NCBI GenBank assembly: GCA_015659035.1 | Contig: DQNS01000028.1 | Location: 8,711-72,710 of the forward strand | DNA length: 64,000 nt | Source: Acidobacteriota bacterium | Lineage (GTDB): Bacteria; Acidobacteriota; Vicinamibacteria; Vicinamibacterales; UBA8438 | Direction: 5' to 3' | Part shown: one piece after another, positions 29,337 through 30,782 of the stretch | Position numbering within the stretch: position 1 is the stretch's first letter | How the letters are laid out: each line of letters begins with the position of its first letter | Translations under genes and position numbers: made by a program | The notes under the pieces: model-generated | Told to the model about the DNA's origin: nothing | What the model saw: only the letters and a program-made list of their open reading frames with translations | Database searches by the model: none

Positions 29337-30782
29337 CTACTCGCCGCCCTCGGTTCTGATGCCCTGCCGCTGCCGTTCGGCCAAGCGGGATTCGTACTGC
29401 GCGTCCGACATGAACGCGATATCGGTCCAGCCGTGTCCCATCTCGTCCATGGTGCGCGAGCCCCACCCGATCCAGGCCGAGGGATCAGGGTTGTGCCGGT
29501 TGTTGACCGTGTTGTCGTGCCACGACACCGTGTGAAGAATCGTGCCCTTCGGGAGCAGGTGTGGCTCCTTGTAGGCGTAGACGATCTGCCAGGTCTGCTC
29601 GTAGTCGGTGACGTCGGTCAGCACCTCGCGCCGGCCGTCGACGTGAATCGCCTCGAGCAGCATCCGCTTGCCCCGGAAATGCATATGCGGCTGGAAGCTA
29701 AGGACGAGCCCCGCCTGCGGCAACGGCCAGAACCGCTCGTGCCGCGCGATCGTATTTGGCGGAATGCTCATCAGCGCGACGCCGTTCAGCGTGTTGTCGT
29801 CGATGAGCGCCCCCGTCGGCATCCGCTCCTCGTGCAGGTCGAGGTCGTAGCCGGCCCGCAGCAGCCGGTCCTCGACCGCCTCACGGTTCAGCTTCCAGTC
29901 ATGCCCGATGCCGGTCCGGATGCGGTGCGCCGTGACAATGAGCTCGGGCACCTCGCCCTTGGGGTAGAACTTGATGCCGACCTTCTGGCGGTCGATGGTG
30001 TCCTCGCCCCAGGGGTGGTAGTGCGGCGCAAATCGGAACAGCCCGCCGGCTGGCAGCTTACGCCCTGTGCCGTCCGGGTAGAACTGACCGGTGCTGCCCA
30101 TGGCGTACTCGATCAGGTCGATCTCGCGCGTGTTCGACCCCATGCCCAACCGGAACCCCTCGCGGTCCTCGACGGTCTCGGGCACACTGACATAGACGTG
30201 CGAGTGATGGACGCAGCAGTAGGCCTCTGGAATGATCTGCACCCACTTCACGTAGCGGTCCTCGGTCAGCCCAGGGTCGACGATCTCGGACGGGTAGAAG
30301 TCGGCCCCCTCGGCCGGAATCTTGAACCCTTCCTCCATCTGGACGATGAGGTCCGGCTCGCCGTAGGTCCATTCGTTCAGGTCGGCGAGACCGAGCGGTG
30401 GCGGCGCGTCGGCTGGGTTGCCGCGGGGCGCGCCGGCCTCGACCCAGGCCACGATCGTTGCGATCTCGTCGTCGCTCAGCGAGGGGTCGGCAACATACTC
30501 GCCAATGCTCCGGTCGATGTGCCAGGGCGGCATCTGACGGGCCACGACGCGGTCCCGGATGGCTCGGGCCCAGGGCCGGGTTTCTGCGTAGGTCAGCAGC
30601 GACATCGGGGCGCTCGTACCCGGACGGTGACACTGCTGGCACGACCGCTGGAAGATTGGCAGCACATCGCGCGTGAAGGTGGCGCCATCGTCGGTCTGTC
30701 CCGCCGCGGCGGGACCAGGGAAAACGGCGCTCGCAAGCAGGGCGGCGGCGATGACGGCAACGCGTGTCGTGACAGCACCCAT
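29337..30782 (-). CDS. c-type cytochrome domain fused to a PHM/DBH-like copper monooxygenase domain (paralog 1)
   Basis: Track ORF 29337..30911. ATG 30782 has a GGAGGA RBS at 6-nt spacing, followed by a signal peptide. The haem motif is [22 protein letters not shown]..MPPWH. The His/Met pattern VHHSH ... HYH ... HMHFRGK ... MDEM is in PHM copper-ligand order. Confidence 0.7.
   Translation of the reverse strand: [481 protein letters not shown]

Follow-up and report, generated by a model that had tools for sequence, protein, structure and literature searches.

The 64,000-nucleotide stretch of Acidobacteriota DNA analyzed here (hereafter the window; positions 8,711 to 72,710 of contig DQNS01000028.1, assembly GCA_015659035.1) encodes a protein, paralog 1, in which a predicted signal peptide and a cytochrome c domain precede a two-copper core of the type found in peptidylglycine alpha-hydroxylating monooxygenase (PHM) and dopamine beta-hydroxylase (DBH). 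Its coding sequence occupies positions 29337..30782 on the minus strand and comprises 481 amino acids (aa) plus a stop codon. A second protein, paralog 2 (40787..42064, plus strand, 425 aa), is 33–35% identical to paralog 1 and has the same architecture without an insertion that paralog 1 carries between its two copper domains. The assignment of paralog 1 to a c-type haem domain followed by a PHM/DBH core is firm, and by both fold and metal sites the protein belongs to the PHM/DBH superfamily. We further propose, with a probability of about 0.6, that it is a periplasmic copper monooxygenase in which electrons would pass from the haem to the electron-transfer copper (CuH) and then to the oxygen-activating copper (CuM) for oxygen insertion.

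In Pfam searches, the top matches of both paralogs were Cytochrome_CBB3 and Cytochrom_C at the N-terminus and Cu2_monoox_C at the C-terminus, all below the gathering score. For paralog 1, Cu2_monoox_C (PF03712) reached 15.6 bits (E 0.011) against a cut-off of 23, with PF01082 unreported, while the cytochrome c families PF13442 and PF00034 reached 22.3 and 16.5 bits against 27 and 21.3, respectively (Cytochrome_CBB3 E 1.7e-4); paralog 2 matched Cu2_monoox_C at 16.4 bits, also sub-threshold. Relatives, however, exceeded the thresholds of PF03712, PF01082, and PF13442: many relatives of paralog 2 passed PF03712, some passed PF01082, and the relatives P0121 and P0122 passed the cytochrome c Pfam models at 34–37 bits. 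Single-sequence phmmer searches with either paralog against the PDB returned no matches, but a 64-sequence family profile (A2) matched rat PHM (E 2e-10) and human DBH (E 3e-8), spanning both catalytic domains, with no other significant match in the PDB. In these alignments, the profile blocks vHH, vlQvHY, HmHllGk, and TtDEM overlie VHH(107/108), VLQVH(172)Y, H(242)TH(244)HLGK, and SSDEM(314) of PHM. Since relatives pass the Pfam thresholds and the family profile reaches PHM, homology holds at the superfamily level.

PHM residues 74–326 were added to the A2 alignment, and all six PHM copper-ligand columns were occupied by the expected residues in both paralogs. The CuH ligands H107, H108, and H172 of PHM correspond to H192, H193, and H254 in paralog 1 and to H184, H185, and H255 in paralog 2, and the CuM ligands H242, H244, and M314 correspond to H366, H368, and M448 and to H321, H323, and M404, respectively. 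The original prediction, which had been made from the DNA letters alone, held that the His and Met residues of paralog 1 follow the order of the PHM copper ligands, and the alignment bears this out. Every motif that it quoted is also present on the minus strand: VHHSH (aa 191–195, 30198..30212) and PHYHP (aa 253–257, 30012..30026) carry the candidate CuH ligands H192/H193 and H254, and PHMHFRGK (aa 365–372, 29667..29690) and TMDEM (aa 444–448, 29439..29453) carry the candidate CuM ligands H366/H368 and M448. Tyr79 of PHM, which lies near CuH, aligns with Y163 of paralog 1.

These positions were highly conserved among 288 diverse members of the family, many of which are <40% identical. The haem residues C48, C51, and H52 were kept in every sequence covering them, and Met84 was kept in 284 of the 288. 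Conservation was similarly high for the CuH columns (H192, 285/288; H193, 286/288; H254, 285/288) and for the CuM columns (H366, 284/288; H368, 285/288; M448, 282/288). His195 and His256, two neighbors of the ligands, were not conserved across the 288 members, which indicates that the listed ligand residues are the selected set. The substrate side differs from PHM: R240, N316, and Y318, which anchor the peptide C-terminus in PHM, correspond to Q364, H450, and W452 in paralog 1 and to V319, V406, and V408 in paralog 2. The absence of these anchors implies that the substrate of paralog 1 is different from a glycine-extended peptide and, judged from its sequence, paralog 1 is neither a peptidylglycine hydroxylase (EC 1.14.17.3) nor a PHM orthologue.

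An AlphaFold2 model of paralog 1 built on the A2 alignment (mean predicted local distance difference test score, pLDDT, 80.9; predicted template modeling score, pTM, 0.77) comprises a three-helix N-terminal domain (helices at aa 36–47, 65–80, and 104–115), two beta-sandwich domains, and a single C-terminal helix after the copper core, with the haem domain placed directly before the CuH domain. In Foldseek searches against the PDB, this model matched DBH with an E-value of 1.5e-13 and about 30 PHM entries with E-values of 1e-11 to 1e-9 (template modeling, TM, scores up to 0.66), and the next-best folds (cupins, PNGase, and DUF2961) were at E > 4e-6 and TM ≤ 0.25. The best-matching structures for the model are those of DBH and PHM, with no convincing match to another fold. 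Taken together with the Pfam searches, in which Cu2_monoox_C and Cytochrome_CBB3 came out on top although sub-threshold, and with the family profile that reaches PHM and DBH, this agrees with the original assignment of a cytochrome c domain fused to a PHM/DBH-like copper monooxygenase. Neither the profile nor the Foldseek searches of the PDB found a solved structure of any bacterial homologue.

The minus-strand open reading frame ending at 29337 is also readable from an ATG at 30911, but ATG 30782 is the better start, because a Shine-Dalgarno sequence read from the DNA (GGAGGA, 30789..30794) lies 6 nt upstream, the resulting length fits that of the orthologues (475–499 aa, with 64–99% identity to paralog 1 among the top 120 homologues of ~480 aa), and a typical signal peptide then stands at the N-terminus. 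This Sec signal peptide (aa 1–27, 30702..30782), predicted by reading the sequence for Arg7, a hydrophobic core, and an AAA/G site, is followed by the haem-binding block in the order that had originally been proposed: CQQCH lies at aa 48–52 (30627..30641). Attachment of c-type haem requires export. The motif belongs to a mono-haem class I-type cytochrome c domain (aa ~35–125, 30408..30680; sub-threshold in Pfam, with relatives above threshold), which also includes the invariant MPPWH block (aa 84–88, 30519..30533), with Met84 as candidate axial ligand. The CuH beta-sandwich domain (aa ~140–280, 29943..30365) is supported by the profile alignment and Foldseek, and the CuM beta-sandwich domain (aa ~341–458, 29409..29762) by Pfam Cu2_monoox_C and the profile alignment. 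A C-terminal helix (aa 459–481, 29340..29408; helix at 460–478 in the model) completes the protein, its end being poorly conserved. Two further features are conserved in the paralog-1 clade only, namely a vicinal Cys189–Cys190 pair (30216..30221) directly before the CuH ligands (AYCCVHHSH), and additional His residues, His195 and His450, near the copper ligands.

As originally noted, paralog 1 carries a large insertion relative to paralog 2. It covers 46 columns in the pairwise alignment (aa ~282–327) and aa ~281–340 in multiple alignments, i.e., an interdomain-linker insertion at 29763..29942 on the minus strand, seen as a gap in paralog 2 and characteristic of the paralog-1 clade. The insertion is predicted to be partly helical, with pLDDT < 50 at aa 293–335, and its sequence is highly conserved per column among 120 orthologues.

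Divergently from paralog 1, the plus strand encodes a predicted secreted protein, hereafter the partner (30901..31686, 261 aa; orthologues are about 255 aa long and suggest ATG 30910 as the start). A scan for sigma-70 promoters in the intergenic region that separates the two genes found nothing. To evaluate gene context, we analyzed 83 loci with paralog-1 orthologues, i.e., 80 loci kept from 584 confirmed hits (Vicinamibacterales for the most part, plus other Acidobacteriota, some Gammaproteobacteria bins, and Thermoanaerobaculia) and 3 look-up loci. In 74 of the 83 loci, a few kb at most separate the paralog-1 orthologue from a partner homologue, and in most of these the two genes are immediate neighbors; six of the nine partner-less loci end prematurely on the partner's side. 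Three arrangements occur across these groups: the partner is divergent upstream in 60 loci, downstream on the same strand in 7, and directly upstream on the same strand in 5 Thermoanaerobaculia loci, where only its N-terminal domain is conserved. The partner was the sole gene of the window to recur widely among the 83 loci.

All 806 partner homologues are named "hypothetical", and their invariant residues include Gln32, H60, H92, C97, C155, and LQYNWE, along with the motif PGHxRFQC. Gln32 (30994..30996) and the Ala before it, which is ≥90% conserved, mark the predicted signal-peptidase site, so that mature partner proteins would all begin with Gln. The structure model of the partner combines an orphan N-terminal beta-sandwich of modest confidence with a confidently predicted C-terminal PKD/Ig domain. 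Attempts to identify the protein further by PDB profile search, Foldseek, and Pfam (N-terminal domain, E ≤ 10) gave generic Ig/PKD or chance-level matches: Pfam returned a weak K319L-like PKD match only for the whole protein and nothing for the N-terminal domain, neither Pfam nor Foldseek detected a DOMON domain there, and NCBIfam held no model for the partner or for either paralog. The insertion of paralog 1 may be a docking surface for the partner. Thermoanaerobaculia relatives keep this insertion only in part, however, lacking a 37-aa helical part although the gene for the partner N-terminal domain is present, so that the link between insertion and partner is not strict and docking is best treated as a hypothesis.

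Very many members of the wider family occur in soil and marine bacteria of the Acidobacteriota, Gemmatimonadota, Planctomycetota, Myxococcota, and other groups. An initial search with paralog 1, limited to 8,000 scored candidates, yielded more than 7,700 homologues, the top 120 of which are named "cytochrome c" or "hypothetical", and an exhaustive phmmer search with paralog 2 against 1.84 billion cluster representatives (clusters at 50% identity) yielded 17,254 clusters at E ≤ 1e-3, of which 3,406 reached E ≤ 1e-30. In 38 of 48 distant metagenome loci (L105–L152), an AhpC/TSA-Redoxin domain was fused to, or encoded directly upstream of, the cytochrome c–copper core; redoxin was also found as a separate gene 8 bp upstream in a Pirellulales contig (L157) and ~1.2 kb upstream in another locus (L158). 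Most of these redoxin domains have a CxxS motif with a single Cys, not CxxC. Their association with the core suggests that redox supply in the periplasm is central to the family. No redoxin domain was detected within ±6–8 kb of paralog-1 or paralog-2 orthologues. Other fusions included TPR arrays, FGE-sulfatase, alpha/beta hydrolase, Mpo1-like, and EF-hand domains, and a second complete copy of the module (P0121, P0122, P0188, P0191, P0237, P0253, and P0257). Going by these sequences, the fusions keep peroxide or thiol handling in play as an alternative function, and also hint at protein substrates.

The original prediction had described the bacterial family as uncharacterized. This stands insofar as a full-text search of a limited literature collection found no paper on bacterial PHM/DBH-type members, solved bacterial structures and an NCBIfam model are likewise absent from the databases searched, and a recent survey describes PHM as widespread in eukaryotes and treats it as a eukaryotic family (PMC8812541). 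It needs to be qualified in that some relatives already carry the automatic name "ascorbate-dependent monooxygenase", along with others called "redoxin domain-containing protein" or, by JGI, "peroxiredoxin". Automatic annotation thus already links some relatives, so that the fold relationship is not invisible to databases. What is new here is the conserved partner gene, the conservation of the insertion, and the redoxin domain in most distant relatives.

In DBH and PHM, electrons enter at CuH, which is held by three His, and O2 binding and substrate hydroxylation take place at CuM, whose ligands are two His and a Met (PMC4846438). The same work describes ascorbate as the source of the two electrons, a solvent gap of >11 Å between CuH and CuM which these electrons cross by a still debated route, and a class of enzymes consisting of a common core fused to differing accessory domains (PMC4846438). 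By analogy, paralog 1 would be exported through Sec and then receive covalent haem at Cys48/Cys51/His52, yielding a soluble periplasmic enzyme. Its N-terminal cytochrome c would take single electrons from periplasmic carriers and hand them to CuH (His192/His193/His254), which would relay them to CuM (His366/His368/Met448), where O2 would be activated and a C–H bond of the bound substrate hydroxylated, as in PHM and DBH. From the domain order, and by analogy, we infer that the haem would be a built-in electron donor; the fused cytochrome c suggests a donor other than ascorbate, and the tethered haem would replace the ascorbate of the eukaryotic enzymes. In the paralog-1 clade, the secreted two-beta-sandwich partner would work with the enzyme, whether as a substrate-presenting or docking subunit, as a copper-loading factor, or as the substrate itself. 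Copper and haem occupancy, the route of the electrons, oxygenase activity, and the role of the partner are likewise elements that we infer.

Comparison with known systems shows both how much of the catalytic core is shared and where paralog 1 departs from it. Like the PHM core (PDB 1phm, 1opm, and 1sdw), it has two jelly-roll beta-sandwiches with one copper site each, His3 at CuH and His2Met at CuM, in the same order and register, and the local motifs VHH, QVHY/PHYH, HxH-x-G-K, and (S/T)xDEM. Unlike PHM, to which it is ~17–20% identical, it is bacterial and predicted to be periplasmic, lacks the peptide anchors and a PAL lyase partner domain, has a conserved 40–60-aa insertion between the domains, and carries a predicted N-terminal covalent c-haem domain that would take the place of soluble ascorbate. 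Within the DBH class (DBH, tyramine beta-monooxygenase, and MOXD1; PDB 4zel), DBH is the best structural match of all, but the accessory domain of paralog 1 is a c-type cytochrome, with no DOMON domain detected by Pfam, and there is no dimerization domain. The DOMON domain of DBH is an Ig-like beta-sandwich, and the partner of paralog 1 is likewise an Ig-like beta-sandwich protein; since the partner N-terminal domain has no DOMON match, this parallel is an analogy only. The same superfamily includes the redoxin–cytochrome c–Cu2_monoox proteins of Planctomycetota, Armatimonadota, Myxococcota, and other groups (33–47% identity to paralog 2), in which haem motif, MPPW block, and all six copper ligands recur. 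They differ in having an N-terminal AhpC/TSA-Redoxin domain of their own and in lacking the paralog-1 insertion and the partner gene; no characterized member was found among them. Haem domains are known to give single electrons to mononuclear copper, which then activates or reduces a small oxidant, in cytochrome-c-fused copper nitrite reductases and in lytic polysaccharide monooxygenases fed by cellobiose dehydrogenase. These enzymes are unrelated to paralog 1 in fold and copper sites, and the analogy is one of function only.

Several observations weigh against a haem-fed copper monooxygenase. The Pfam scores of paralog 1 itself are under the gathering thresholds, the PHM substrate anchors are replaced, so that the substrate-side chemistry may differ, and Gln170 of PHM, a residue considered in connection with electron transfer in that enzyme, aligns with Ala252 of paralog 1. 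The partner N-terminal domain has no recognizable relatives and its model is mediocre. Finally, the frequent fusion to CxxS redoxin domains could mean peroxide or thiol handling rather than C–H hydroxylation. This last point leads to a different function, which we consider improbable though worth keeping in sight: electrons would run from haem c through CuH to CuM to reduce O2, H2O2, or nitrite, in periplasmic detoxification or respiration, much as in cytochrome-c-fused copper nitrite reductases, and no organic substrate would be oxygenated. The AhpC/TSA-Redoxin domains fused or adjacent in most distant relatives, some of them named "peroxiredoxin" by JGI, would fit such an activity, as would the missing anchors; PHM structures with nitrite, azide, CO, or O2 bound are available in the PDB, which indicates that CuM-type sites bind small ligands. 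However, a His2Met CuM with a separate His3 CuH is the exact monooxygenase arrangement (PMC4846438) and is invariant across the family, no redoxin domain lies near paralogs 1 and 2, and ~17,000 clusters with TPR, FGE-sulfatase, and hydrolase fusions are better accounted for by many organic or protein substrates.

Those same fusions bear on a special case of the monooxygenase reading, in which the copper core would hydroxylate or cross-link a residue of the secreted partner, for instance to form a cofactor or a surface protein in modified form. The tight conservation of the gene pair, the invariant partner motifs (PGHxRFQC, LQYNWE, and the Gln at the predicted mature N-terminus), and the fusion of enzyme relatives to protein-binding TPR arrays and, in one case, to a domain of the FGE-sulfatase type (a protein-modifying copper enzyme family) are all consistent with it. 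The partner is nevertheless a well-conserved, folded two-domain protein and no short precursor, it is absent beside paralog 2 and beside most members of the superfamily, and no modification site could be identified from its sequence. We rate this special case as slightly more doubtful than the reduction of small oxidants. We consider it very unlikely, in turn, that paralog 1 is a non-catalytic copper-binding, trafficking, or sensing cytochrome whose His/Met sites buffer periplasmic copper or pass it on. The protein is predicted to be periplasmic, and the partner beta-sandwich, with its conserved His, Met, and Cys, loosely resembles periplasmic copper chaperones. Two solvent-exposed, labile type-2-like copper sites are also typical of the fold (PMC4846438), but the full catalytic ligand set and the interdomain architecture are conserved over deep divergence, beyond what buffering would need, and the examined loci contain no conserved copper-resistance or regulator genes. 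Overall, haem-fed oxygen insertion by a periplasmic copper monooxygenase is the reading that we retain.

The haem motif of paralog 2 is CATCH (40910..40924, plus strand). A second, paralog-2-like copy also occurs in 14 of the 83 paralog-1 loci (L017, L021, L023, L026, L028, L032, L033, L035, L048, L051, L056, L057, L071, and L077), mostly within ~2 kb of the first and 4.5–5 kb away in L017 and L056; in L051, L057, and L071 it is the next gene after the partner, on the same strand as the partner. Only 34 bp separate paralog 2 from the end of an upstream arylsulfotransferase gene (ASST; 39110..40753, plus strand; E 5e-64 in Pfam), which was considered as its operon partner. This pairing is limited to the closest relatives (L084 and L087), i.e., lineage-specific, and was therefore dropped as a functional clue. 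Other neighbors were likewise rejected as parts of the paralog-1 module. A B12-binding radical-SAM gene (33630..35138, plus strand) keeps its synteny with the paralog-1/partner pair in 22 loci of Vicinamibacterales and not beyond; this gene and that of an S58 peptidase are syntenic only within close Vicinamibacterales, in 22–23 loci, and an M20 peptidase is common to only 4 loci.

A probable selenoprotein gene, read as such from its sequence, occupies 31692..33248 on the minus strand (~518 aa), with an in-frame TGA at 33000..33002 in the context ...ILGCLT-U-PPFLANV (CxxU). As a candidate module part it was rejected, being common to L046 only, where the orthologue retains both the TGA and a hairpin (ACGUCUCC-CGGGU-GGAGACG) that begins 18 nt past the TGA. 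The protein has weak deiodinase-like/Redoxin and DsbD_N matches and strong EF-hand matches, and is of a different thioredoxin-fold type from the redoxin domains of the family. No tRNA genes were found in the 64-kb window.

Combining these observations, one tentative and rather unlikely extension is that paralog 1 and its partner form a two-component periplasmic oxygenase, in which the insertion docks a partner that presents, or is, the substrate, and that the family of ~17,000 clusters consists of respiratory-chain-coupled copper monooxygenases acting on envelope proteins or polymers, perhaps the prokaryotic stock of the eukaryotic neuro-endocrine enzymes. Nearly all work on PHM/DBH enzymes, which make noradrenaline and amidated peptide hormones, has been done in animals. 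A bacterial version would provide a glycan-free, recombinantly expressible protein, and with a covalent, spectroscopically visible haem, electron entry and inter-copper transfer could be triggered and timed directly. The conserved partner gene offers a concrete experimental entry point, and a single assigned activity would annotate thousands of genes.

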